Source: Leptolyngbyaceae cyanobacterium (lineage in GTDB: Bacteria; Cyanobacteriota; Cyanobacteriia; Phormidesmidales; Phormidesmidaceae). Taken from it: 45,985 nt of DNA. Of this stretch, positions 7,027 to 27,121 are shown in pieces. Both the position numbers and the translations under genes were made by a program. The number at the start of each line of letters is the position of its first letter. Within the stretch, counting starts at the first letter, position 1. The stretch covers positions 1-45,985 of the forward strand of contig JBHJHA010000084.1 in the NCBI GenBank assembly GCA_050331235.1, given 5' to 3'. The notes beneath the pieces were generated by a model, which made no database searches, was not told the origin of the DNA, and was given only the letters and a program-made list of their open reading frames with translations.

Positions 7027-8037
7027 ATGTTGCGACTTGATTGGATATCATCCATTCCGAGTTTTGCATGCCGATTTACTATCGGATACATAGCTCGTTT
7101 ATATAAACGCCGGTATTTTTTATTGGCCGCGATCGCCTTCATTGCGGTTCAGTTTGTTCACAGCTGGGGAGATCTCCCCCAGCTTGGGACAGCACCAGCA
7201 GTGGCTCAAACCACGACCAATATTGTGAATCAGGCGGGGGGTGGCTACCTAGACGCCAATGGCAACCCGCAACGTGTGACCAGCAATCAGACGACACTAC
7301 AGGCCACAGAAACGCCTCCTCTGACCATTATCAAAACGGCTGATCGCGGAGCTGCTGAACCCGGTGATGTTGTCGTTTATCGACTCTTGGTGCGCAATCC
7401 CTCAGCTTTACCCGCTGGCCCGTTGACCATTACGGACGAGTTGCCGCTGGGGATGCAACTGATTGAAGATTCAATTCGTACATCACCGCTGCAGTTTACG
7501 TCGGTGACAACAAGCGATCGCAGCTTCACCTTGGACTTTGGCGGTGCATCTCTCGCACCTGGGCAAGAGCTTTCGGTGGTCTATGCAGCCTTAGTGACGC
7601 CGGATGCCGTTCGCGGTTCGGGGCGCAACGTGGCTCAGGCCAGCACCCCAACTAGCAGCAGCACCGCAACCAATGAGCTGGCAATTCGCCCGGGTATTTT
7701 GGCGGACTGCGGCACCTTAGTCGGGCGAGTCTTTGTGGATAAAAACTTTGATGGAGAGCAGCAGGCTGGAGAACCCGGAGTGCCTAATGCTGTTGTGTTC
7801 CTCGATGATGGCAACCGCATTTTGACTGACCCAGATGGTTTGTTCTCGCTGGCCAATGTAATTGCAGGGAACCGGGTCGGCACTTTGGATTTGACTAGTC
7901 TGCCGGGTTACACGCTGGCCCCTAACTTATATCGACTGGCTGATAATAGCCAATCGCGATTGGTGCGGTTAGAGCCCGGCGGCCTCGCTCGTATGAACTT
8001 TGGCGTCACACCTGCATTTGGGGAGGAGCAAGGGTGA
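7027..8037 (+). CDS. Secreted DUF11-domain protein with C-terminal SdrD-B-like domain (putative adaptor)
   Basis: Signal ending AVA/Q; DUF11 pattern LTIIKTAD...PGDVVVYRLLVRN...ITDELPLG...LAPGQ...GRNVA; then GTLVGRVFVDKNFDGEQQAGEPGVPNA...TDPDGLFS. The exact start is uncertain. Confidence 0.82.
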   Translation: MLRLDWISSIPSFACRFTIGYIARLYKRRYFLLAAIAFIAVQFVHSWGDLPQLGTAPAVAQTTTNIVNQAGGGYLDANGNPQRVTSNQTTLQATETPPLTIIKTADRGAAEPGDVVVYRLLVRNPSALPAGPLTITDELPLGMQLIEDSIRTSPLQFTSVTTSDRSFTLDFGGASLAPGQELSVVYAALVTPDAVRGSGRNVAQASTPTSSSTATNELAIRPGILADCGTLVGRVFVDKNFDGEQQAGEPGVPNAVVFLDDGNRILTDPDGLFSLANVIAGNRVGTLDLTSLPGYTLAPNLYRLADNSQSRLVRLEPGGLARMNFGVTPAFGEEQG

Positions 8038-11000
8038 TGAAAACACTTATTGCACTGATGGGCTGGTTGGCAGTTGGCGCACTAACTGCTGAGATCTCGG
8101 GAGTGGCGATTGCGCAATCGGTGGACGACGCGACTCCAATTGCCGCTGAGGCTCACAGTGGGCAATCACCAGATGATGTCATCGATATCGTTACGCTGGT
8201 TGAGCCAGCGGTTGCTGGTGACGCCGAAGCGGCTCAACCAGCAGCGGTCGCCACCGAGGCGTCGGCGCTGTCTGAGATTGAGGAAATGGGCGCCGATCAA
8301 TCTCTACCCGTAGTCATTGGCGATCGCGCTGCCGCTGAGGTGCCCGCGTCGGTAGGTGCCGATGCCATGGTGAGACCGCTGAGGCTGAACTCAGCCACTG
8401 ACGTTGATGGCCCGCCTGCTGCGACCACGGATGCAGATGATTCCAGGGAAACAATAGCGGGAACGGATACCGGCGTTGGGGAGTCCGACGCGATCGCCCA
8501 GTCTAACCCGCAGCCTTTGCCCGAGATTCCGGAAGATGCGGTGGAGCGCGAAGAGGAGACACCAGAGCTCAACATCAGTCTGACGCCGATTACGAGTCCC
8601 GTTGTTCCAGCCAACCGTCGTTCGACTATCGAATTTGAAGGTCGCATCACAGATGCTGCTGGCGAATTAATTCCCGAAGATGTCGTTGTCACTCTAACCA
8701 CCGCTGCCGGTGAGTTTCAGGGAGCGGACTACGACACCGATTTAGCCGGATTTCAGGTCTTAGCTCGGCAAGGGCAGTTTGGCGCAATTTTGCGTTCCTC
8801 TTTAGAAGCTCAGCCAGTTCGCATCAGAGCTGCGGCCTCGGCCTACGAGGCTCAGGGCATCGAAGAAACGGCAACTCTAGACCCTGTACCTGACTTGGAA
8901 ACCTTTGTCGAGGTTGAATTTGCCACCAACCTCCGGCCAACTTTGGTCTCTGGGGTCGTTGATCTACGGATCGGACCAGGTGGCACCAATTTTTGGGGCG
9001 GCTTCGCTGACTTCCTAGATCCCGACGACATTGGTGATACGGAGTTTGACCTGGGGGCCGCGCTGTTTGCTACCGGGAGCCTAGGCGACTGGCAGTTTAC
9101 CGGTGCGCTCAATACCCGTCGAGCCCTCAACGAAACCTGTGGTGACGGCAACCGTCTGTTTCGCAACGATCAGTTTTGCGACAATACCTATCCGGTCTAT
9201 GGCGACAGTTCCCAAACGGACTATCTGACGCCGTCTATCGATAGCTTTTTCGTGCGGTTTCAGCGCGACTCAGAGGTGGCGGGGGGTGAGCCTGACTACT
9301 TTATGTGGGGCGACTATGAAACCCGAGAGTTTTCTCGCTTTTCCCAAGAGTTTACGGCGATCACTCGACAACTCCATGGCTTTAAGGGCAACTACACCCT
9401 AGGTAATTTCCAAATTACCGCCATGTTTGCTAATAACCTCCGCCCCTTTCAGCGCGACACGATCGCTCCGGACGGTACAAGTGGTTTCTACTTTTTGTCT
9501 CGGCGTGTCATCCTTCCCGGCAGTGAAAACGTCTTCCTGGAAACTGAAGAGCTTAATCGTCCAGGCACCGTGATCGAACGCCGACAGCTAGCTCGGGTAA
9601 GCGATTACGAAATTGACTACGATCGCGGTACGTTGCTGTTCCGTCAACCGATTTATCGGACCCGCGTTGATCCCTTGGGCAAAACCCTGGTTAACCGTAT
9701 TGTGGTTACCTATCAGGTTGATCAAGACAATGATGGCAGTCTGTATGCGGGACGCTTGCAGTACAACTTTAAGGCCGGCCAACCCAATCTTGGTGGTTGG
9801 GCTGGGGTGACACTGCTCACCGAAGATCAAGGCGACCAAGACTTTACGCTATATGGCGCGGATGTGCAGGTGCCATTGGGCGAAACGGGCTCCCTCACGG
9901 GTGAATTTGCCCGCTCTTCATTTGATCGATTTGGTGAATCAGCCGACGGCAACGCCTATCGGTTAGAGGCCCAGGGTCCTCTTTTTACCCCAGCGGTGCA
10001 GGGTTTGGCCTATTTGCGCAGTGCCGAAAGTGGCTTCACTAATACGGCGACCACCAGCTTCCGACCGGGACAAACCCGCTGGGGGGCGGCGGTCAACGCC
10101 GCTGTGAGTCCAACGACACGGCTCAATGTCCAGTTTGACCAGGAAATCAACCGAGGGAAGGCTCCTGAGGTCCTCACGGATTCTGAGAGCCTATTTAACC
10201 CAGGACAATTTGCCGAGCCGGGCGAGCGGGTCGACAATACCCTAACGACCTATCGGGCCGGCGTCTGGCAAGAGTTTGGCTCGGTGGATGTGGGTCTGGA
10301 TTATGTCAACCGCGATCGCCGCGATCGTCGCGCCGACACGACAACTAACTCACAGCAATTTGTTCCTCAACTAGCCATTCCGCTTTCCTCAGACCTAAGT
10401 TTCCGGGCTCAGAGTGAGATTAATATTGGCGACGACGATGACATTGCTTACCCCGATCGCACGACCCTAGCCCTGGATTGGGCGGTGCAGCCCGGCGTCA
10501 CCATGCGCCTGTCCCAGCAGTTCATTAGCAGTAGTGGCGCTAATCCGCGCAATATCACTAGCCTCGACACCCTGGTGGATTACGAACTGGGCGACAACAC
10601 TTCGCTCCGCAGTCGATATTCACTCATTGGTGGTTATGGCGGCTTGATCGGGCAAGCGGCACTGGGACTCAACCACCGGATTGTCCTGGCTCCAGGCTTA
10701 CGAGCAACCCTGGGCATTGAGCACGTCATCGACGATGCCTTTAACAATACGGGGGCCGGTCAACAATTTGAGCAGCCCTATGCTGTCGGCCTCGGCGGCA
10801 CAGCCCTAGGCATTCTTGGCGGTACCGCCTACTCAGTTGGTTTGGAATACACTACCAACCCAGATTTCCAAGCTAGCGCCCGCGTTGAGCATCGGGATTC
10901 CTCCTCGGGAAGCAACACGGTGTTTACCGCAGCGGCGGCAGGCAAGATTACCAACGCGTTGACCAGTTTGTTCCGGTTTCAAACGGCGAACTTTGCCAAC

Positions 11001-11795
11001 CAAACGATTACTGGCAACTTGGGGAACTCCACCGATCTGAAACTGGGGATGGCCTATCGGAACCCCATCAGCGACGAGTGGAACGCGCTGATGAGTTATG
11101 AATATCGGCGTAATCCTTCGACGACGCCCGAGTCGCTCCTGATTGACAATGACATCGGGTCCTCAGATCACACGCTATCTTTGGAGGCGATTTACTCCCC
11201 CAATTGGCAGTGGGAGTTTTACGGCAAATATGCTTTCCGCATTAGCGATGCGACGCTGGCCGATGATTTTGGATTCTCCAACTCGATTCACCTGATGCAG
11301 TTCCGCACGGCTTATCAGTTTGCTTATCGGTGGGATGTCTTAGGAGAAGTGCGCTATATCACCCAGCCAGAGGCGAGCTTCAACGAGGTGGGCGCTTCGG
11401 TGGAGCTGGGGTATTACCTAACGCCGGATTTACGATTTGGCGTGGGTTACAGCTTTGGTAGTGCCGATAATGATGGCTTTGGTGGCGGCTACCGTTCGGC
11501 CAGTGGCCCCTACTTTGGGGTGCAGCTCAAGGTCAACGAACTGCTCAATGGCTTTGGCATTCAGCCTGAGGTGGGGCCGCCTCAACAGGAAGAATCTCTG
11601 GTGGATACCGCGGCAACCCCCGATGAGGCAGACACTAGTGAGGAGCTGCGCGAGAGCGACATTTCCTTTATTCATCCGGCCCCGACGGCTGAGGTGGTAA
11701 AAGCATTGGCCGCCGCCGCTAACGATTTGGTGAACTCGCCGCTGGCGATCGCCGCTGCGCTTCCTGAGTCATTCAGCGATAGAGGTATCCGATGA
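8034..11795 (+). CDS. Large outer-membrane beta-barrel protein with N-terminal acidic linker and Ig-like domain
   Basis: Signal peptide (AIA/Q), acidic Ala/Pro-rich linker, Ig-like segment, then a long region of alternating amphipathic strands rich in aromatics and Gly (e.g. ASVELGYYLTPDLRFGVGYSFG...YFGVQLK). GTGA overlap with the upstream stop. Confidence 0.78.
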   Translation: MMKTLIALMGWLAVGALTAEISGVAIAQSVDDATPIAAEAHSGQSPDDVIDIVTLVEPAVAGDAEAAQPAAVATEASALSEIEEMGADQSLPVVIGDRAAAEVPASVGADAMVRPLRLNSATDVDGPPAATTDADDSRETIAGTDTGVGESDAIAQSNPQPLPEIPEDAVEREEETPELNISLTPITSPVVPANRRSTIEFEGRITDAAGELIPEDVVVTLTTAAGEFQGADYDTDLAGFQVLARQGQFGAILRSSLEAQPVRIRAAASAYEAQGIEETATLDPVPDLETFVEVEFATNLRPTLVSGVVDLRIGPGGTNFWGGFADFLDPDDIGDTEFDLGAALFATGSLGDWQFTGALNTRRALNETCGDGNRLFRNDQFCDNTYPVYGDSSQTDYLTPSIDSFFVRFQRDSEVAGGEPDYFMWGDYETREFSRFSQEFTAITRQLHGFKGNYTLGNFQITAMFANNLRPFQRDTIAPDGTSGFYFLSRRVILPGSENVFLETEELNRPGTVIERRQLARVSDYEIDYDRGTLLFRQPIYRTRVDPLGKTLVNRIVVTYQVDQDNDGSLYAGRLQYNFKAGQPNLGGWAGVTLLTEDQGDQDFTLYGADVQVPLGETGSLTGEFARSSFDRFGESADGNAYRLEAQGPLFTPAVQGLAYLRSAESGFTNTATTSFRPGQTRWGAAVNAAVSPTTRLNVQFDQEINRGKAPEVLTDSESLFNPGQFAEPGERVDNTLTTYRAGVWQEFGSVDVGLDYVNRDRRDRRADTTTNSQQFVPQLAIPLSSDLSFRAQSEINIGDDDDIAYPDRTTLALDWAVQPGVTMRLSQQFISSSGANPRNITSLDTLVDYELGDNTSLRSRYSLIGGYGGLIGQAALGLNHRIVLAPGLRATLGIEHVIDDAFNNTGAGQQFEQPYAVGLGGTALGILGGTAYSVGLEYTTNPDFQASARVEHRDSSSGSNTVFTAAAAGKITNALTSLFRFQTANFANQTITGNLGNSTDLKLGMAYRNPISDEWNALMSYEYRRNPSTTPESLLIDNDIGSSDHTLSLEAIYSPNWQWEFYGKYAFRISDATLADDFGFSNSIHLMQFRTAYQFAYRWDVLGEVRYITQPEASFNEVGASVELGYYLTPDLRFGVGYSFGSADNDGFGGGYRSASGPYFGVQLKVNELLNGFGIQPEVGPPQQEESLVDTAATPDEADTSEELRESDISFIHPAPTAEVVKALAAAANDLVNSPLAIAAALPESFSDRGIR

Positions 11796-13843
11796 AAACA
11801 CTATCGACATTTTTGATCATTGGGACAGGATTGAGTTTTTGGGTGGCGGCGGCGATCGCGCAAGCACCCACGGGTTTTGACATTACAGTCAACAGCTCAA
11901 CGGATGGCAGCGTCACCCCCGATGACGATCTCACCCTGCGGGAGGCGATCCTTATTGCCAACGGCAGCTTGCCGCTGGAAGCACTTTCGCCTACTGAGCA
12001 AGCCCAGGTGACGCCAGCAGCCACGAGTCAATTCGGCTTTGACTTGCCCAGCGATGACACCACCATTGCGCTGAGCCGAGCGTTGCCGCCCCTAACAGCA
12101 ACCGGACTAGTCGTAGATGGGACAACGCAGCCAGGCTATGGCGAGGCGTTGCCCTACTTGCCCAACACCCCGACCCCAGTGGTGAGCCTGACCGCTGCCA
12201 GCGGTCGCGAGGTCTTGACAGGACTCACGGTGACGGGCTCTGACATTACCGTCCGGGGGTTGAACCTGTATGGATTTAAGTCCAACGCTCGCACTGCAAC
12301 TCTGACCACGCCTTCAGCTGACATCTTAGTGATCAACCGGCCGGTGCCGGCGGATCTACAGCTCGATGCCCCCCTCTTTGAGGGACTAGCTTTGGATGAC
12401 CCTACCGCCGCCGCCGAAAACGAGACGATTGAGCAAAACTGGCTCGGGGCCGAGCTCGATGAGTCGATGCCGGCCCGGCGATCATCCTTTGGTGTCGTGG
12501 TCTTTAATGCGGAGAATGTCCGCGTGGCCGACAACCTGATTCAGCATCACGATGCGAGTGGCGTTATCACGGGATACCGCGCCGATGGTTTGCAATTGGT
12601 GGGCAACGCTATTCTCGGTAACGGCTTAGCGGGAATGCCGGACGGCGTCAGACTCGAAGGCTCTTTGAATGGGGCTGCCGTTACCAATAACCTCATCTGT
12701 GCCAACGATGGGAGCGGCATTTTTATGTTTGAGCCAGAGGGCTCAGTTTTAATTGAAGCCAACAACATTCGCTTTAACGGCCGTCGATTTCGGCGTGCTG
12801 CCATATTTGTCATGGGCCAGGGCCATGAGATTGTCGGCAATGATATTGGCTATCAGCCGGGTCCGGGTGTAGCAGTGTCGGCCTATCCCCATAGCGATCG
12901 CAACCTGATCCTTAACAATCAATTTGCTCAGGTCGACGGCTTAAGCATCGACCTGCTAGCCCAGGGCAACAGCGATATTTTGCACTTTCAGCGGGGGGAT
13001 GGCCCTAACCCTCCCCGTGACCATCACCATCGTCGCGCCGCGACCGGGAATGGTGCCATCAACTCACCAGAGTTTAGCCAATATCAGTTTGAGCAGACGG
13101 GTAGCGGCCTGACTCTGAGCGGCAAGGCAGATCCCGGTAGCGAAGTTGAGCTTTATCGCGTTAAAGAAGATCGCGGCATCTACAGTCCGCTGAGCGAACC
13201 TTTGATGAGTACTACGGCCGACGCTGACGGTAACTTTGCCTTTGCCTGGGACAGTGCAGCGGGAGATTGGCTCAGCGCGATCGCGTCTGACCCAGCCTAT
13301 GGAACGTCGGAACCATCGCCAGTCATTGGCGTGGTCGGGGTGGACGGCACCCTGCCGGAGCGGCCAACCCCGATGCCCTTTGACGCTAGCTGCTATCCCC
13401 CGGTGATCACCCAAGCGCCGCCGCCGGAGCCGGAGCCACCAGCTCCCATCGTGCTACGGGTGCCCCGTAACATTCACTTTGCGCTTGATCAGTCCAATAT
13501 CAGTCCGGCCAGTGCGCAAATCTTGGATCAAATTGCGGCGGCTATGCGCACCTATCCCTCCTTAGTGGTCGAACTTCAGGGCCACACCGACCCGCGTGCG
13601 AGCGATGCTTACAACCAAGCCCTCAGCGAGCGGCGCTCCATCGCGGCTCGAGACTATTTACTGCGTCAGGGCATTGCGGCTGAACGGATGCGCATCGTGC
13701 CCTTTGGTGAAACCCGTCGTCTCACCGACGGCACCACTCGCCTAGACTACGCCCGCGATCGCCGGGTGGAGTTCATCTTTACCGACACCCAAGGCATTGA
13801 CATCATCTTTGAAGATGTCGAGTCCGACCTCCAGATCGAGTAA
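11792..13843 (+). CDS. Secreted CSLREA-like/right-handed beta-helix protein with C-terminal OmpA-like peptidoglycan-binding domain
   Basis: VNSSTDG...LTLREAILIAN; parallel beta-helix repeats (N-x-I-x-x-N); Pro-rich linker; FALDQSNI...LQGHTDPRASDAYNQALSERR...DRRVEF. ATGA overlap with the barrel gene. Confidence 0.85.
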   Translation: MKTLSTFLIIGTGLSFWVAAAIAQAPTGFDITVNSSTDGSVTPDDDLTLREAILIANGSLPLEALSPTEQAQVTPAATSQFGFDLPSDDTTIALSRALPPLTATGLVVDGTTQPGYGEALPYLPNTPTPVVSLTAASGREVLTGLTVTGSDITVRGLNLYGFKSNARTATLTTPSADILVINRPVPADLQLDAPLFEGLALDDPTAAAENETIEQNWLGAELDESMPARRSSFGVVVFNAENVRVADNLIQHHDASGVITGYRADGLQLVGNAILGNGLAGMPDGVRLEGSLNGAAVTNNLICANDGSGIFMFEPEGSVLIEANNIRFNGRRFRRAAIFVMGQGHEIVGNDIGYQPGPGVAVSAYPHSDRNLILNNQFAQVDGLSIDLLAQGNSDILHFQRGDGPNPPRDHHHRRAATGNGAINSPEFSQYQFEQTGSGLTLSGKADPGSEVELYRVKEDRGIYSPLSEPLMSTTADADGNFAFAWDSAAGDWLSAIASDPAYGTSEPSPVIGVVGVDGTLPERPTPMPFDASCYPPVITQAPPPEPEPPAPIVLRVPRNIHFALDQSNISPASAQILDQIAAAMRTYPSLVVELQGHTDPRASDAYNQALSERRSIAARDYLLRQGIAAERMRIVPFGETRRLTDGTTRLDYARDRRVEFIFTDTQGIDIIFEDVESDLQIE

Positions 13844-13900
13844 CGCTTTTTATTGTCTTTTCACTGTCTGTGCCCATCCAACTGAACTGCCAGTAGACCC

Positions 13901-16741
13901 ATGAACCACCGCGTGTCCTATCAACAACGAGCGATCGCCCTGTTCAATGCCTTCCTCAAGGTCTGCTTGGCCGTTCTCTTCTGCCTTAGCTCCTTTGCCA
14001 CCCCTGCCTGGGCCAACCAAGCCGTAACGGCTTATCAGGTTGTTGACATTCCGGCAGCAGGCAGCACAGTCCGTGTTCAACCGACCAACCCATGTAACGG
14101 TGGTGGTATCAATGTGGATTCCAGAGTTCCTAGCTGTAATGGAACTCCAGTAGCAGACGGGGCTCCGACTGGCGATGTGGATATGAACTTTGGCCAGGGG
14201 TTTAATCGGACTTTACAGGGGCTAGTGGTTGGCGGTAGAACCTTTGTACCTCAATCCCCCCAGGTGCCAGGGGGACTGCTAGATCGGGTGGTTTTTCAGC
14301 GAGGTGGTCTCAACGCCACATTACCTGCGCCACGTGTGCAGCTTTTCTATGAGCAAACTGCATTCAATGCTGGCGCTACTCCCCCTAGCATTGACCTTGG
14401 CCCTACTGCGGCAAGCTTGGCAGACGGCCTTAGAAGTCTCGTCATCAACCGAGGCGTAGACAATATTTTCAATAATGCCACCGAGTCAGCCAATGGCGCG
14501 GAGACACAGAACAATATCGAGAGAGTCGATTACATCAGCGATGGCGGAATTAATGTCCCAGTTGCTGAGCGGGATGATTTTGGCTTTTGGGTTGGGGATC
14601 GAGCGAACAATGGTGCAGATCCTTTTCGGGTTGCAGCCATTACTGGACTGGCGGGAGGCAACCCTAGTGCTTATGGGCCTTTGCGAGTTGCAGAAATTGA
14701 CAACACCAACCAAAACGCCCTGGGCGTGGCGACTTTTCCGACAGTTGTTACGCGCATAGACAACACTACAGATCCGACCACCGTTATCCAGCAGCCATCC
14801 CACAGAACCGGTTCAGCCCAGAATGTACGAGGTCGTTTTTTCTCCATCGCAGACTTGCTTGAGCCAGAGGATACTACGACGACCACCATTTTTGGCTATT
14901 CGGTTTTTCCTGGAGATGTCGATCCAGTTGGGGCAAACAACGCTGTACCATCAACCGATGTCAACACTTATCCAACTGATACTGACAGCAATAGTGCCGG
15001 TGCTGACGGAGGTATCGACTTAATTGCCGGCGGAGCCTTTTTTGCCGTTGAACCTGATCCTGAAATTGGTGTTGCAAAGACGGTGTCTGCTCCAAGAATT
15101 GTTGACCTTGCAACCGGTATTTATGACATTGATTTGACGATTCGTGTCACTAACACGGGCAACACGGCGCTCAACAATGTGCAGCTAACGGAAGATTTAC
15201 AGGATACGTTTATCACCAATGCCTCGGGTACTACTCCGGCTGCGGCCTTCAATCGAGCCGATTCTTTTGTGATTCAAGCAGGGCCGACGGTCGACACCTC
15301 TGGGGTTACAGGAACAGTACCAACCCTCAATGGCGGCTATAACGGAACTGGCACCAACACCCTGTTCAACGCAGGTAATGCATTTAATGTCAACGATACG
15401 GCAGTCGTCACCCTCACGGTACGAGTTACTCTAGGGGCACTTGGGGGAGCCGCGCCGAACACCGACGGAATTTTGGTAACCAACAACCAGGCAAATGCCT
15501 CTGGTACGTCCCCAGGAGGACAGACCGTTACAGACCTTTCAGACAATGGGTCCAATGTCGATCCAGATGGGGATGGGGATCCTACAAACGATAATGACCC
15601 TACCCCGATCCAAATTCCGTTTCCCAGTATTGGTGTGGCAAAGAGCGTTAGCGGGTTTACTCAGGTAGCCGTAACCACTCAGTACGACTTCGACTTCACC
15701 ATCATTGTTACTAACTCAGGCGCAACTAACTTGACTGACGTCACCTTGCAGGAGGACTTACAAGCGGCATTAATTACCAATGCGACCAATCGAGTTGATA
15801 GCTTTGTCATCCGGGCAACTCCGACGGTCACCACGACCGGATTCACGGCTGCTGGGGCTGTCGGACCGACTATCAACGGCGCTTACAACGGCGTCGGCAA
15901 CATTGAACTGTTCAGCGGTAGCAATTTATTTACCCCGGGCGATACCGCCACGGTCATTGTTCCAGTCCGAGCAGAGTTGGGCGCTGGAGGAGCCGGACCG
16001 CTTAACGACGGCATTGTAGTTGCTCAAAATACGGCGACGGCGTCGGGTCTACCGAGTGGTCCTGGTGTACCACCAGGGACGGGACGGATTACGGATGAGT
16101 CGCAATCGGGGGGCAATGTTGATCCCGATGGTGACGGCAATCCTGGAAATAACACCGATCCGACACCGATTGCATTTCCGGCGACTACAACTGACCTAGT
16201 CATCGTGAAGCGCATTACCAACATCTTTCGCCAGGGTGCAGCGTTGGCAGTCCCCGGCATTGCTAACTTCAACGACCAGCCGGGTGATACCAACGACAAT
16301 AATCTGAACGCGGCGCTCGGCGGCGGTAATCAGCTTGCGGGTATCTTTCAACTGCCGGCTGGGTTTGGGCTTGAGTCTAATGATGAGGTGGAATACACTA
16401 TCTACTTCTGGAACTCCAGCGCTGGACAAATTACCCAGTTGAATATCTGTGATGAGTTGCAAGCACCCTCCGTGCTGAATACCGGAGTTGCCTTTGAGTT
16501 AGCCGCCGTTGGGGCTTTAGGAACGCCTACCTTTGGTCCTGCTGGTAATACTGTTCAGGGGCGATCGCCAGGTGCTCCCTTAGAGGCATTTTGTCCTTCG
16601 GCACCCGGCAGCTTCCCCTTAGGTCCGCCTGGACCTACCGGTGGCCTAGGGGTTGGTGCGGGTGGAGGCGTCATCGCTGGCCCCTTTACCGTTCCGGCTA
16701 ATCAGTTTGGGGGCATTCGTTTCCGCGTACGAATTCCCTGA
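13901..16741 (+). CDS. Secreted adhesin-like protein: N-terminal head, two complete and one C-terminally incomplete DUF11-like domains
   Basis: Signal ending AWA/N; two repeats of IGVAK...Y-D-x-D-x-TI-x-VTN-x-G...EDLQ...N-x-A...NVDPDGDG-x-P...DPTPI; third domain LVIVKR...DEVEYTIYFWN...ICDEL...IRFRVRIP*. Confidence 0.82.
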   Translation: MNHRVSYQQRAIALFNAFLKVCLAVLFCLSSFATPAWANQAVTAYQVVDIPAAGSTVRVQPTNPCNGGGINVDSRVPSCNGTPVADGAPTGDVDMNFGQGFNRTLQGLVVGGRTFVPQSPQVPGGLLDRVVFQRGGLNATLPAPRVQLFYEQTAFNAGATPPSIDLGPTAASLADGLRSLVINRGVDNIFNNATESANGAETQNNIERVDYISDGGINVPVAERDDFGFWVGDRANNGADPFRVAAITGLAGGNPSAYGPLRVAEIDNTNQNALGVATFPTVVTRIDNTTDPTTVIQQPSHRTGSAQNVRGRFFSIADLLEPEDTTTTTIFGYSVFPGDVDPVGANNAVPSTDVNTYPTDTDSNSAGADGGIDLIAGGAFFAVEPDPEIGVAKTVSAPRIVDLATGIYDIDLTIRVTNTGNTALNNVQLTEDLQDTFITNASGTTPAAAFNRADSFVIQAGPTVDTSGVTGTVPTLNGGYNGTGTNTLFNAGNAFNVNDTAVVTLTVRVTLGALGGAAPNTDGILVTNNQANASGTSPGGQTVTDLSDNGSNVDPDGDGDPTNDNDPTPIQIPFPSIGVAKSVSGFTQVAVTTQYDFDFTIIVTNSGATNLTDVTLQEDLQAALITNATNRVDSFVIRATPTVTTTGFTAAGAVGPTINGAYNGVGNIELFSGSNLFTPGDTATVIVPVRAELGAGGAGPLNDGIVVAQNTATASGLPSGPGVPPGTGRITDESQSGGNVDPDGDGNPGNNTDPTPIAFPATTTDLVIVKRITNIFRQGAALAVPGIANFNDQPGDTNDNNLNAALGGGNQLAGIFQLPAGFGLESNDEVEYTIYFWNSSAGQITQLNICDELQAPSVLNTGVAFELAAVGALGTPTFGPAGNTVQGRSPGAPLEAFCPSAPGSFPLGPPGPTGGLGVGAGGGVIAGPFTVPANQFGGIRFRVRIP

Positions 16742-21442: not shown

Positions 21443-23819
21443 CTATTGCAGATCAATCGCGACTTCGTCGAGCTTGCCGGTAAAGGCAAAGGGCAGCTCG
21501 TAGCCCTCGGTCACTGGCGTTCCCGTATCAAACCCGACATCCAATGTCTCATCTAGGGTGACGCGATTGGGAATGCTCTTTTCGACTCGACCCTGGCCAA
21601 TTTTCCGATTGTTGGCATAGAGGGTAACGGTAGCTCCGGCATAGGGCTGATCAGCATCTGTTTTGTATGCCGCCTTGAGCGACACTTTCCCGGAGGGAAT
21701 GCGCTGATCTGACTCAATGTTGTACCGTTCCACGTTGGCCAGATTGTAGTGGTAAACAAGCTTGCCGTCCTTCACGAACAAGCCGTAACCGGAGAAGCGT
21801 CCCCCCAATGTGACCAGCATGCCCTCCGCCCCTTGGGAAGGCATCTCCACCTCAGCAGTAATAGTATGATCAACGTGCTTCAGGTCAGGAGACGAGCCTT
21901 CCGGCACGCGAATCCCCCGCGGATAGGCAAAGTGAGTCCGGCCGGCGGTGAGGCTGGGACGATTTTCGACATTGAGGCGGGCCGTCTTGCGACCATCCAA
22001 CGGCAACACGTTGTAACGGGCCGCTTCCGCATAGAACAAATCCTTCATCTCTTGCAGCTTTCTCGGCATCTCATCCGCCAGGTCAACAGCTTGGGTAAAG
22101 TCTTCGTTGATGTTGTACAGTTCCCAATCTAGATTTCAGGATGTCCTTATCACCGGCCGGTTCAGAAACCCAGGGGGGAGCCCACAGGGCGCTGGCCATC
22201 CAACCATCGCTGTAAATTCCTTGGTTGCCCAGCATTTCGAAATACTGGGTGGTGTGGCGGGTCGCCGCGTCTTCATCATCGAAGGTATAGACTAAGCTGG
22301 TTCCCTCGATGGGCTTTTGGGTGATGCCGTTGACCTCCACCGGTTGCTCAATCCCGATCGCCTCTAAAATTGTCGGGGCAATGTCGATCACGTGGCTGAA
22401 TTGGAAACGCTTGCTGCCGTTATCTTTGATGCGATCGGGCCAAGACATTGCCAGACCGTTTTGAGTACCGCCAAAATGAGAGGCAATTTGCTTAGTCCAT
22501 TGAAAGGGGCTATCCATGGCCCAGGCCCAAGCCGCGGGGAAATGGTTGTAATACATGGGACCGCCCAAATCAGCGATCGCCGCCACCTTGTCTTCAAGCT
22601 TTTCAGGCAACCCGTTGAAGAATGTCATCTCGTTCAACAGCCCGTTGAAGCCGCCTTCGGCACTGGACCCGTTATCCCCTGCCATATAGATCACTAGGGT
22701 GTTGTCGAGTTCACCCAGGGAGTCAATAGCATCCACTACGCGTCCCACTTCGTGATCGACATGGGCAGTAAATCCGGCAAACACTTCAGCCATGCGGGCA
22801 TAGACCCGTTGCTCATCCACCGATAGCGAATCCCAGGCGGCCAACGCCTCAGGTCGCGGTGTTAGCTGAGCATCAGCCGGAATTACCCCCATTTTCTTTT
22901 GCCGCTGGAAGGTTTCCTCGCGGTATTTGTCCCAGCCCATGTCAAATTTTCCAGCAAATTTCTCAACCCACTCACGGGGAGCTAGATGGGGGGAGTGGGT
23001 CGCTCCAGTCGAGAGATACACAAAGAATGGCTTATCGGGGGAAACCGCTTTTTCTTGGCGGATATAGTTAATCGCGTGGTCGGCCAAATCTGTGCTGAGG
23101 TGGTAAGGGGAGCCATCCCGGTTAGTCTTGGGCGCTTCGATGCGGGTGGTGTTTTCCACCAGGGCTGGGTTGAACTGGTCCGTATCGCCGCCAACGAACC
23201 CATAGAAGTAGTCGAATCCTAAGCCCCGGGGCCATCGATCAAAGGGGCCGGCCATGCTGCTTTCCCAATCGGGAACGTTGTGATTTTTGCCAAACCAGGC
23301 GGTTGCGTAGCCATAGGCCTGCAAAATCTGAGCAAAGGAAGCGGTGTTGTCGGGAATGATGCCGGTATAGCCAGGGAAACCAGTCCCCGCTTCGGTAATC
23401 ACGCCGTTGCCCACGGAGTGATGGTTACGTCCGGTGAGGAGCGCCGCCCGGGTGGGAGAGCAGAGGGCCGTGGTGTGGAACTGGGTATACTGCAGGCCAT
23501 TTTTTACGACGCGATCCATCGTTGGGGTAGGAATGCTGCCGCCAAAACTGCTGAATTGACCAAAACCTACATCGTCTATCAGCACCAGCATAATGTTAGG
23601 TGCATTTTCAATGCCAAACGTTTCTGTCAGATTGAGTTCTGATTTGACCGGTTCGGAGGTCTTGTAGGTGAGCCCAACTTTGCCAGAAAACGGCTTGGAA
23701 GGATGGGGCAAAATTTCTTGAGCCAGGGCCGGAGGCACTGCCGACTGTAGGGCAATCGCGACAATCACCATCCAGGCCAGGGTGAGTTTCCAGAGACGAG
23801 AGAGCATAGTGAGCCTCAT
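21443..23819 (-). pseudogene. Secreted Cys-type arylsulfatase-family enzyme interrupted by a 1-nt frameshift (real or sequencing error)
   Basis: LIDDVGFG, CSPTRAALLTGR and GKNH. At 22134-22136, CTG AAA TCT AGA TTG becomes CTG AAT CTA GAT TGG (LNLDWELYNINEDFTQAVDLA) on removing one A, joining the 578-aa and 208-aa ORFs colinearly with the paralog at 24767-27121. Confidence 0.85.
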
Positions 23820-23917
23820 GAATATGGCAGATATGGCGATCGCTGAAATCGGTCCTGGTTGGCTCGCAGGTAGAAAGGTGCTAAGGAAGTTGGCAGGCGA
23901 TCACAACACTTGTGGTC

Positions 23918-23950
23918 ACTATGCAAGCTATAGGTAAAGACCAGATAAAG
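23918..23950 (-). promoter_or_regulatory. Tandem 8-mer direct repeat (11-bp period) plus -10-like hexamer upstream of sulfatase 1
   Basis: Minus strand CTTTATCT-ggt-CTTTACCT-atagcttg-CATAGT. Confidence 0.6.
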
Positions 23951-24010
23951 AGCACCCCATCTAACGGCACTAACGTGAGGCGAATGTCCCGTAAAATGCG
24001 ATGACCGGAG

Positions 24011-24688
24011 CTAACTTAGCAGGGCAGCGATGCCCTTCCAAGTGAACAGCGTGCCAAACAGGAGTGAAACGGCAATGGTGATCGGGCGATTGTAAACAGT
24101 CAACCAATCAGAAGCTCGCTTCAAAAGCGTTTGCGATCGCTGCGGAGCCAGAATGCAGAGCAACAGGGGCAGCAGCAACAAAGATTCCGCCGCTAATACG
24201 TAAATCAAAAAGGCCACGATACTGGCGGCATTGCCCAATGCCGCATCTTTGATAGTGCCAATGGCCGATAGGGTAAACACCCACATCTTGGCGGCAACCA
24301 ACGTCAATACCACACCCAGCCCCCAAGTCTTGGTAGCGCTAGCACCATCCATCATTGTCATCCACTTGGGCGGGGGCGCATCAGGGTCAGGCTCGCTGCG
24401 ATAGGCCTTGAGAGCAGTGATGAGCAACAGGAGGCCCAACACCAATAACAAAGCGGCGATCGCCGGCGACGGTCCAGCACTCTCCTGCCCCGTAGCATCC
24501 GAAGCGCCAAAAAGATAGCCAAAGGCAAGGCCCTGAATCAACCGCACCAGTGTCGCCCCGGTCACAAAGGCGACTCCTTTGACCACTCCCCCCGGGCTGC
24601 GCAAAATGAGCAGCATCAGAATGATCAAGATGGGCACTAGGGCCGAGCCCAAGAGCATGGGTAGGAGCTGAATCAGGATGCTAGCCAT
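24011..24688 (-). CDS. GAP/Sap (sulfolipid-addressing, LysE-superfamily) membrane protein
   Basis: About 6 TM helices, LGSALVP..., PDAPPPKWM and LKRASDWLTVYNRPI. ATG at 24688. Confidence 0.75.
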   Translation of the reverse strand: MASILIQLLPMLLGSALVPILIILMLLILRSPGGVVKGVAFVTGATLVRLIQGLAFGYLFGASDATGQESAGPSPAIAALLLVLGLLLLITALKAYRSEPDPDAPPPKWMTMMDGASATKTWGLGVVLTLVAAKMWVFTLSAIGTIKDAALGNAASIVAFLIYVLAAESLLLLPLLLCILAPQRSQTLLKRASDWLTVYNRPITIAVSLLFGTLFTWKGIAALLS

Positions 24689-24727
24689 AGGATGTTGCCG
24701 GGGGAGTAAACGAGGGCTGGGCGATGG

Positions 24728-24760
24728 TGCCATCGGGCAAGCTATACCTACCCGATGGCA
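24728..24760 (-). other. Stem-loop immediately after the sulfatase 2 stop
   Basis: TGCCATCGGG-N13-CCCGATGGCA perfect 10-bp stem with no U-tract; probably a transcript-stabilising or attenuating hairpin. Confidence 0.5.
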
Positions 24761-24766
24761 GTCAGG

Positions 24767-27121
24767 TTACGACTTGATATCAAGCACCACTTTTTCCACC
24801 GTGCCGGTAAAGACAAACGGGGGCTTATAGGCGGTACTCACAGGCGCCTGCAGGTCTTTACCAAAGTCCAGCGACTCGGTGCCAAACCGACCGGGAACGG
24901 TTTTGGGAATGGTGCCTTCGCCTACCTTTCGGTTGTTGATATACAGCTTGCCGGTGCCGCCCTTACCGACGCCGCCATCATAGTCAAAGTCAAACCGCAC
25001 CTTGACGCTGCCGGTGGGCATGGGTTTGTCCGCGGCGATTGACGTCCGCTCTAGGTCAAACCAGTTGTAGTTGTAGGTCAAAGTATTGTCTTTAACGTAT
25101 GAGGTAAAGCCTCCGGTGGTGCCCCCTTCGGAGATGATGACGCCTTGAGCTCCCGACTTTGGCACTATGATGTCCGCCGTAATCGTGTGGGAGAGATTCT
25201 TGAGGCTCGGGGCGCTGCCTTCTGGAATTGAGGGCATGTTGCCCGCAAACTCAATGTGGTTACGTCCCGTGAAGAAACCTGGACGCAATGTCGGGTCAAG
25301 GCGCTCAGCAAAGCGATCGTCCAGGGGGAAGACGTTGTACTTTTTGCCCTCAGCGATAAAGCCCTCCTGCAGTTCGGCTAGCTTCTCCGGCTGCTCAGCG
25401 GACAGGTCAATGGCTTGGGTAAAGTCCTGGGTCAGGTCAAACAGTTCCCACGTATCTTCATCAAACGGGACAGTACCGGCGGTAATCCAGGGCATTCGGT
25501 TGTGGAAGGCCGCCGCCATCATGCCGTCTTTATAGAGAGCCCGGTGACCAAACATTTCGAAATACTGGGTTTCGTGACGGCCAGGGGTAGACTCAGCACC
25601 GCGATCGAAGGTGTAGACCAGGCTGGTGCCTTCGATCGACTTTTGTGGAATGCCGTTGTAGATGTCGGGCTCCGGAATACCGGCCGCCTCTAAATGGGTG
25701 GGGGCAATGTCAATCACGTGACTAAACTGGGGCCGCAGGCCGCCCTTTTCCTTGATCTTGGCCGGCCAGGAAATCACCATGCCGTTACGGGTGCCGCCAA
25801 AATAGGAGGCCACCTGCTTGGTCCAGCGAAAAGGACTATCCATGGCCCAAGCCCAACTCACGGCGTAGTGAGGTGAGGTTTCGGGACCGCCCCAAATGTC
25901 GTAGCAGCGACGATTGTCTTCTATGGTCAGGTTCAGACCATTCAAATTCAATAGCTCGTTGCAGGTGCCGATGAGACTCCCCTCAGCACTGGAGCCATTG
26001 TCACCGTAGATATAGATAATCAAGGTGTTGTCGAGTTCACCCAGATCTGCGATCGCATCCACCACGCGACCCACTTCGTAGTCAGTGTAGTCAAGGAAGC
26101 CAGCGTAGGTTTCCATTTGACGGGCCAGAATCTTTTGATCTGCGGGACTAAAGCTATCCCACGCGGGCATTTGCTCAGGGCGAGGGGTGAGTTTCGCATT
26201 GGCCGGAATCACGCCCAGTTTCTTCTGTCGCTCATAGGTTTCTTCCCGCAGCTTGTCCCAGCCCTGGTCAAACTGGCCTTTGTATTTGGCCACGTAGTCC
26301 AGCGGGGGTTGGTGGGGCGCGTGGACGGCCCCCGGCGCAAAGTAAGCGAAAAAGGGTCGGTCAGGCGCGGTGGTTTGCTCTTGCTTAATCCAGGCAATGG
26401 TTTTATCTGCAAGGTCGTGGGTGAGGTTGTAGCCGTCTTCAGGCAGGGGTAGTTCTTCGACCAGGTTCTGATTTTCATAAAGGCTGGGGTACCACTGATC
26501 GGTTTCGCCGCCAATGAACCCGTAGAAATAGTCGAAGCCTAACCCATTGGGCCAGCGATCGAACGGACCGACACTGGTGGTTTGGTTATCGGGGACGTTG
26601 TGGTTTTTGCCAAACCAGGCGGTGCTGTAGCCATTGCGTTGCAAGATCTGACCAATGGTGGCGGTGCTCGCAGGAATTAACCCTGTATAGCCTGGATAGG
26701 CAGTGGCGAGTTCTTGAATCGTGCCGGAACCGACGGAGTGGTGATTGCGCCCGGTGAGTAAGGCCGCGCGGGTGGGAGAGCACAGCGCCGTGGTGTGAAA
26801 GGTGTTGTACCGCAAACCGTTGGCTGCCAACCGATCAAACGTGGGGGTGGCGATCGGCCCGCCAAAGGTGCTCGCCGAGCCAAAGCCAGCATCATCAATC
26901 AGCACCAACAAAACGTTGGGGGCACCCTCAGGTGCTTCAACTGATTTCAGCAGGCTGGTATCAGTTTGAGACTCCTTATAGGTGATGCCAATTTTGCCAT
27001 TGAACTCCGGCTCCGGCCTGGGCAGCCTTTCTTGGGCCCAGGCCAGCGGCACGGCAGTCTGCAAGACCAGCGCCACAATTGCTACCCAAGTCAGGGTAAA
27101 TTTCCAAAGGCGATCGCACAT
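24767..27121 (-). CDS. Secreted Cys-type arylsulfatase-family enzyme with C-terminal beta-sandwich domain
   Basis: Sec signal ending AWA/Q; LIDDAGFG, CSPTRAALLTGR, GKNH, HAPH and GDNG. GAGG RBS upstream. Confidence 0.92.
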   Translation of the reverse strand: MCDRLWKFTLTWVAIVALVLQTAVPLAWAQERLPRPEPEFNGKIGITYKESQTDTSLLKSVEAPEGAPNVLLVLIDDAGFGSASTFGGPIATPTFDRLAANGLRYNTFHTTALCSPTRAALLTGRNHHSVGSGTIQELATAYPGYTGLIPASTATIGQILQRNGYSTAWFGKNHNVPDNQTTSVGPFDRWPNGLGFDYFYGFIGGETDQWYPSLYENQNLVEELPLPEDGYNLTHDLADKTIAWIKQEQTTAPDRPFFAYFAPGAVHAPHQPPLDYVAKYKGQFDQGWDKLREETYERQKKLGVIPANAKLTPRPEQMPAWDSFSPADQKILARQMETYAGFLDYTDYEVGRVVDAIADLGELDNTLIIYIYGDNGSSAEGSLIGTCNELLNLNGLNLTIEDNRRCYDIWGGPETSPHYAVSWAWAMDSPFRWTKQVASYFGGTRNGMVISWPAKIKEKGGLRPQFSHVIDIAPTHLEAAGIPEPDIYNGIPQKSIEGTSLVYTFDRGAESTPGRHETQYFEMFGHRALYKDGMMAAAFHNRMPWITAGTVPFDEDTWELFDLTQDFTQAIDLSAEQPEKLAELQEGFIAEGKKYNVFPLDDRFAERLDPTLRPGFFTGRNHIEFAGNMPSIPEGSAPSLKNLSHTITADIIVPKSGAQGVIISEGGTTGGFTSYVKDNTLTYNYNWFDLERTSIAADKPMPTGSVKVRFDFDYDGGVGKGGTGKLYINNRKVGEGTIPKTVPGRFGTESLDFGKDLQAPVSTAYKPPFVFTGTVEKVVLDIKS

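Follow-up and report, generated by a model that had tools for sequence, protein, structure and literature searches.

A predicted self-ligating joint between a putative adhesin and its adaptor, formed from a domain split over two genes in a Leptolyngbyaceae cyanobacterium

The window analysed here is a contig of 45,985 nucleotides (nt; JBHJHA010000084.1) from a Leptolyngbyaceae cyanobacterium, its cyanobacterial nature being evident from ndhK/ndhJ-like genes and phycobilisome linkers. After a gap of 950 nt it carries an operon of four co-oriented genes, encoding an adaptor, a predicted outer-membrane beta-barrel protein, an OmpA protein and a putative adhesin; the first three overlap by 4 nt, and all four products have, by eye, signal-peptide-like N-termini. 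We propose that the last domain of the adhesin is incomplete, that it is completed by a hairpin at the N-terminus of the adaptor, and that the two chains become covalently joined, a reading to which we assign a probability of roughly 0.65. From the sequences, docking of the hairpin into the adhesin is predicted with high confidence, and a bond between adhesin K770 and adaptor N68 would, given docking, be quite probable.

The domains concerned are of the CLIPPER type. CLIPPER (DUF11, PF01345), CLIPPER_2 (DUF7507) and PDB 9IFR share a CnaA-like domain with a Lys/Asp(Glu)/Asn triad in register, and the profiles place both proteins here, the adaptor through PF01345 and 9IFR and the adhesin through TIGR01451 (three stretches, E 1.7e-8, above the cut-off), while DUF7507 scored 26.8 bits on the adhesin against a cut-off of 27. 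The adhesin (13901..16741, forward strand, 946 amino acids (aa)) consists of a predicted signal peptide, a head, two complete CLIPPER_2-like repeats (15056..16183) and a terminal acceptor (residues 762-946, 16184..16741). An earlier note on this DNA had derived the joint from single residues and motifs, and every one of them is in place: K393, K581 and K770, EDLQ at 431 and 618, N529, N710 and D851 in ICDEL in the adhesin, and N68, K103, TDELP and the peptide encoded by 7207-7299 in the adaptor. Lys, acid and Asn stand in one chain in repeats 1 and 2 and in the adaptor's own domain, and not in the terminal domain. By profile alignment, repeats 1 and 2 have the Glu of EDLQ (E431, E619) as their catalytic acid, which lines up with D851, with D137 of the adaptor and with D748 of 9IFR; D432, also considered as catalyst, was dropped for E431 on the same alignment. 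The triads of the complete repeats are K393/E431/N529 and K581/E619/N710, and among 48 homologues of these repeats Lys, acid (Glu in 43, Asp in 5) and Asn are each found in 48. The adhesin contains four Lys in all, K20 in the signal region and one per repeat (K393, K581 and K770); the mature protein has Lys only at the three triad positions.

The acceptor (codons 16208-16210 for K770 and 16451-16453 for D851) ends in FRVRIP followed by TGA at 16739-16741, just as had been claimed, and stops before the Asn hairpin. The absence of an Asn strand was borne out by an alignment of 68 acceptors, in which K, R, G, Y, C, D, G and F, including K770, R771, C850 and D851, are invariant (68/68) and no Asn occurs among the invariant or 90% columns. 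N774 (KRITN), a candidate internal substitute for the Asn, was dropped as it is not conserved. The missing part, taken by the earlier note for the Asn strand, is better described as a two-strand hairpin (N68 strand, turn, S86-N87 strand), because 9IFR, with its K715-N806 bond and presumed catalyst D748, has one further strand after the Asn strand according to the accessible text of PMC12617251.

No homologous adhesin was found to continue past the FRVRIP position. All 36 aligned C-terminal domains, from the window and 35 other adhesins, stop 4-5 residues past one shared Phe; this set leaves aside open reading frames (ORFs) still open at the region end (locus L036 and, in L057 and L058, the second adhesin) as well as the upstream fragments of split genes (L043, 1354 aa; L063, 549 aa; L059). 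In 80 further loci, 42 complete genes come immediately behind the barrel/OmpA genes, and 41 of them stop at the same strand, the sole exception being an insertion sequence (IS) transposase; nine loci have no gene of at least 250 aa within 900 nt, seven of them ending within 252 nt and the other two (L123 and L139) having 6.7 and 3.5 kb of sequence remaining. When the best 150 matches to the acceptor profile were taken from a library of 1.84 billion representatives, 21 spanned the whole profile and 21/21 ended at most 3 residues from the C-terminus, the remainder being mostly giant tandem-repeat proteins with many partial matches each. Some loci of the two survey sets come from the same genomes, and most homologues are kin. 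An adhesin broken by a premature stop, with only a chance likeness at the adaptor N-terminus, would agree with the weak short-segment similarity of the window's own sequence; it is refuted by the conserved C-terminus of the homologues and by run X1 (probably of the source sample), one contig of which has the same adhesin stop, and we give it practically no weight. With this end point shared by the homologues, the stop cannot be put down to an artefact: the truncation is by design.

Profile-profile comparison relates the acceptor to the adaptor CLIPPER domain with a probability of 94.6%; the acceptor profile matched no PDB sequence at E up to 5. C850 (16448-16450), beside D851, is invariant in 68/68, and many of the acceptors have another Cys further on (C898, 16592-16594). 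A C850-C898 disulfide is likely on this pattern and may keep the open fold in place until a donor comes in. The pilin acceptors described below show no Cys at the C850 position when aligned. A different use of the domain has to be weighed here, namely that its inserts and the disulfide let it fold alone and that the barrel or the OmpA protein reads it as a C-terminal signal for export or sorting, the adaptor segment having another role. Its terminal position in every case, the invariant Cys, the long inserts and the amphipathic strand at its end would all suit such a signal, which would leave unexplained the Lys/Asp pair lacking a same-chain Asn, the orphan Asn hairpin of the partner, the two-half pilins and the Gln-substituted small protein; the inserts, moreover, differ widely in length and sequence between homologues. 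We consider this distinctly unlikely. With FRVRIP as its end, the adhesin has no sorting signal of the LPXTG type, and no sortase is encoded among the operon genes, the genome not having been searched for sortases.

The proposed donor lies in the adaptor (7027..8037, forward strand, 336 aa), which comprises a predicted signal peptide, the donor hairpin (residues 61-91, 7207..7299; N68 codon 7228-7230, N87 codon 7285-7287), a complete CLIPPER/DUF11 domain of its own (K103, D137, N201; 7315..7692) and an SdrD_B-like C-terminal domain. Pfam places DUF11 at 99-216 (E 5e-8) and SdrD_B, below cut-off, at 234-282. Alignment of full ORFs showed N68 in 75/75 adaptors and N87 in 74/75; 75 of 80 loci passed the filter for this alignment, and the other five also show the Asn. 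N68 is predicted to be the isopeptide Asn and N87 is likely a structural one. K103, D137 and N201 are invariant in 75/75, and the adaptor profile matches 9IFR_A (E 4.7e-7), all three triad residues falling in register; the adaptor's domain is thus complete and does not need the adaptor's own hairpin.

The earlier statement that the adaptor segment resembles the missing strands holds above chance for the family and not for this sequence by itself: 33 of 73 donors cover the Asn strand at more than 3 bits, against 2-13 in 30 shuffles, while the window's own donor reaches 1.6 bits, which is not significant. On a profile of 30 complete internal repeats, acceptors occupy mainly columns 25-65 and donors columns 105-125, and in profile-profile alignment N68 falls on N529 (P 0.006, probability 6%). 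The spacing from donor Asn to adaptor Lys is 29-42, overlapping that of tandem repeats (34-64, n = 17). Spacing and profile coverage therefore make adhesin plus adaptor read like one stalk cut inside a repeat. Scanning the source genome (95.5% complete, 118 contigs) yielded one donor and one acceptor, both in this operon, and the two proteins therefore likely pair. Completion of the adhesin's C-terminal domain by the adaptor, as first proposed in the earlier note, is in this way supported by the conserved truncation and by a predicted triad, K770/D851/N68, which is invariant although it is split over two genes.

The joint is part of a larger system, with the predicted barrel, the OmpA protein and, in sister operons, a pilin. 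The survey of homologous operons that the earlier note had called for revealed co-occurrence of the truncated acceptor and the N-terminal Asn segment in cyanobacteria, Deinococcota and Alphaproteobacteria. The adaptor is present in 40 of 61 sampled cyanobacterial genomes, as a short form in 33, as a long form in 18 and as both in 11. In four of the sampled genomes (G008, G013, G028 and G059) no full acceptor match was obtained; the operon runs off the end of the contig in G013 and G028, and in G059 the region covered stopped at that point. Long-form operons start with a pilin of 800-900 aa that has a donor N-terminally and an acceptor C-terminally; the next gene encodes a small acceptor whose catalytic position is occupied by Gln. 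The pilin is homologous to the N-terminal part of the adaptor (95.7%), and its donor Asn and acceptor Lys are invariant (13/13); the small acceptor is CLIPPER-like, keeps the Lys in 12/13 and has the Gln in 13/13. At E < 1e-20, the small acceptor is present in each of the 18 long-form genomes and in 0 of the 22 that have the short form only. The pilin likewise occurs in all 18, and in one of the 22 (a partial one, in G036); a remnant of it that carries a donor persists in G042, where an IS has broken the operon. Since 13 of these same loci had supplied the profiles, the absences are the informative half of the result.

These absences bear on whether donor and acceptor are real and serve other partners, for instance a shaft subunit missing from the assembly. 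The incompleteness of the source genome and the case of G036, which has a partial pilin and yet only a short adaptor, would allow for that. The pilin is lacking, however, from 21 of the 22 short-only genomes, including the near-closed G011, G016 and G060, and neither a pilin nor a small-protein gene is present in the 80 short-adaptor loci, 55 of which extend more than 4.5 kb upstream; partners of this kind seem very unlikely. At 8 bits or more, the donor profile of the short adaptors matches the N-terminus of 12/13 pilins, 0/73 adhesins, 0/36 barrels and 0/27 OmpA proteins. The donor of the short adaptor may accordingly be of the pilin type, in which case the adaptor would take the tip directly. 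The window operon is, on these comparisons, a shaft-less, cap-less, one-joint form of a wider fibre system.

The long adaptors (L051-L067) keep the first donor Asn and mostly lack the Ser-Asn of the second strand, unlike the pilins and short adaptors; a specificity code distinguishing base from tip is a possible meaning of this difference. At L153:1051-13262 (G042) a transposase cuts the operon inside the barrel gene, the acceptors being present and the adaptor lost, and an 823-aa protein of G042 has a pilin-type donor and no terminal acceptor, perhaps as a frameshifted piece. An orphan pilin and small-protein pair at L154:3044-6241 (G035:C72) has no adaptor or barrel gene in the 19 kb covered and may feed another operon in trans. 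The same gene set is carried on plasmids of Thermus brockianus, Deinococcus sp. QL22, Pacificitalea manganoxidans and Synechococcus NIES-970. The five-gene cluster of T. brockianus, a cultured thermophile, lies directly after carotenoid and photolyase genes in the same direction (L069:11229-28200) and may be light- or stress-regulated.

The 1253-aa protein (8034..11795, forward strand) belongs to no Pfam or NCBIfam family above cut-off. Its Atlas neighbours include a putative outer-membrane beta-barrel cluster (0.98), and a crude scan gave 27 amphipathic strand candidates in residues 556-1169; it is likely an export and anchoring platform. The tie between adaptor and barrel comes from Pacificitalea, where a single chain of 2032 aa unites a donor with homologues of the adaptor domains (E 3e-13) and of segments of the barrel (E 1e-26), and the adaptor is likely the base piece bound to the barrel. 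The 683-aa product of the third gene (11792..13843, forward strand) combines beta-helix, Big_6 and C-terminal OmpA domains (OmpA E 1e-17, Beta_helix 1e-9, Big_6 1.5e-7) and is likely a peptidoglycan tether. Some loci, L044, L047 and L052 among them, lack the OmpA gene, have a truncated copy or have its OmpA domain joined to the barrel.

The label adhesin is our inference. The head (residues 39-385, 14015..15055) carries no family name and has 14 relatives, including DUF4347/RTX proteins (P0012, P0013); it also occurs in a 531-aa protein of another architecture (among P0012, P0013 and P0014). Judged by these relatives, it is an unnamed mobile extracellular domain shuffled among protein types. 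Heads and stalks vary freely among loci and the acceptor is constant. Six loci (L033, L034, L040, L057, L058 and L061) have at least two acceptor-bearing adhesins and one adaptor per operon, which suggests that different tips can be exchanged on a single base. A DPDGDG(D/N)P loop resembling a calcium-binding motif follows the Asn strands of repeats 1 and 2 (15545-15600 and 16115-16160), and the adaptor carries DKNFDGEQQAGE at 238-249.

In the mechanism we propose, all four proteins would be exported by Sec, and the adhesin would pass head first through or beside the barrel and be held by the SdrD_B-like end of the adaptor. Insertion of hairpin 61-91 into the acceptor would produce one continuous adhesin-adaptor stalk of four CLIPPER domains, in which D851 would catalyse formation of the K770-N68 isopeptide bond, the buried triad losing ammonia as in 9IFR. 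The OmpA protein would tie the platform to the cell wall. In the sister operons the pilin, which has the two halves in one chain, would build a polymer between the tip and the base, and the small Gln acceptor would cap donors reversibly; the cap is absent from the window operon, where it would not be needed because nothing can polymerise. The assembly order would follow from the donors, pilins and short adaptors sharing the tip-taking type and the donor of long adaptors taking only pilins.

The principal competing account of the bond is that the hairpin completes the acceptor and the joint stays non-covalent, as in chaperone-usher pili, with the triad kept for packing. Of the complete repeats in 150 library proteins, those with Lys have the Asn in 1679/1727 (97%) and those without Lys still have it in 51/70 (73%), together with the acid in 48/70; the Asn thus has in part a structural role, and a bond is not proved merely by its being invariant. 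Over 1883 repeats, most covarying pairs lay within the fold, and the Lys-Asn pair did not stand out. The accessible text of Costa et al. (PMC12617251) describes some DUF11 domains without the bond, and that of bioRxiv 10.1101/2024.11.04.621531 reports BsaA N35A oligomers that resist sodium dodecyl sulfate without it. A stronger argument for the covalent joint than the Asn is that three residues in two genes are invariant together, with the Gln acceptor serving as a natural negative control, since an invariant Gln in place of the acid in one acceptor class implies that acid chemistry matters in the others; the mature adhesin, besides, has no Lys beyond the three of the triads. On balance, we regard a permanently non-covalent joint as rather unlikely.

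Several observations weigh against the covalent joint, or against the system around it. The acceptor profile alignment is firm only over residues 823-868, its last strand having been placed by pattern, and the inserts of this 185-aa domain could cover the open edge. The window's own donor scores low against the complete-repeat profile, and donor profile-profile probabilities amount to 2-6%. The Lys-dependence control for the Asn is only partly supportive, long adaptors carry a different donor (1/17 at 8 bits or more), and the role of the barrel rests on linkage and fusion only. Finally, the homologues are kin, mostly cyanobacteria, and the counts are not independent.

Split isopeptide domains that re-form and ligate are familiar as the engineered SpyTag/SpyCatcher and SnoopTag/SnoopCatcher pairs; here a CnaA-like fold would have been split by evolution. 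CLIPPER domains are known as tandem stalk repeats of diderm fibrillar adhesins, in which the bond is intramolecular as far as the accessible text of PMC12617251 goes, whereas here one repeat is split between two genes. A lock between chains is described in the accessible text of bioRxiv 10.1101/2024.11.04.621531 for BsaA, a TasA-family protein of Clostridium perfringens, where an N-terminal donor Asn (N35), an acceptor Lys (K74) and an acid (E56) first exchange and then lock, backed by alanine mutants. Likewise, the donor Asn here (N68) is, by sequence, on a different chain from the acceptor Lys and acid (K770, D851). BsaA differs in being a TasA-like, SipW-processed homopolymer of a monoderm, whereas the joint in the window would combine a CLIPPER fold, a predicted two-strand hairpin, a one-off heteromeric joint and an outer-membrane barrel; Pfam and NCBIfam revealed no TasA-family subunit or SipW peptidase among the four operon genes.

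In chaperone-usher pili (Fim, Pap), partly covered by the accessible text of PMC13721041, an incomplete Ig fold is completed by the neighbour's N-terminal extension. A completion of this kind is proposed for the window operon from the complementary profile coverage and the polarity of the donors. The likeness would extend to an acceptor-only tip, a donor-only base and an outer-membrane barrel in the operon; the pili differ in their non-covalent single donor strand, PapD-type chaperone and 24-strand usher, whereas the window operon has neither chaperone nor shaft. The barrel gave no usher match in Pfam/NCBIfam at E up to 1, and no PapD-type chaperone is encoded among the four operon genes. By analogy, the system would work like a chaperone-usher tip and base with a BsaA-type lock, and it is a member of neither the chaperone-usher, the TasA/BsaA nor the sortase systems. 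The archaeal thread Saci_0406 also combines donor-strand complementation with an intermolecular isopeptide, which in the accessible text of PMC9715654 links Asn57 to the N-terminal amine of subunit n+2 and differs in having no Lys-Asn triad. The accessible parts of three further papers describe donor-strand fibrils and no isopeptide (PMC11494351), a DUF11 grappling hook and no donor or isopeptide (bioRxiv 10.1101/2025.08.19.671072), and DUF11 with respect to a signal peptide only (PMC13297417). We found no description of the operon or of an intermolecular CLIPPER bond in the literature searched, the coverage of which leaves out most subscription journals.

Elsewhere in the window, two sulfatase genes flank a Sap/SfLAP gene (21443-27121); 13 nt beyond the sulfatase gene of 578 aa lies a 208-aa ORF with no Pfam match, and the two are possibly one split gene. 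A scan of the window for promoters and terminators returned fewer sites than in shuffled sequences. No RNA data set was listed as holding the adhesin gene, a blank that says nothing about its expression.

Taken together, we lean towards an undescribed class of diderm surface fibres built from split CLIPPER domains that would ligate themselves between chains on a giant barrel, with donor classes encoding the assembly order; the window operon would be its minimal form, an evolved tag/catcher pair that would mount interchangeable adhesins covalently on the outer membrane with no sortase, chaperone or shaft. Two small fragments and one predicted bond make the short operon the simplest test case. 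If true, the family would hold a large natural tag/catcher library for protein engineering, possibly orthogonal and partly thermophilic. It would also mean enzyme-free covalent surface display in bacteria with an outer membrane, along with a new pilus class, and may bear on the surface attachment of mat and biofilm cyanobacteria.

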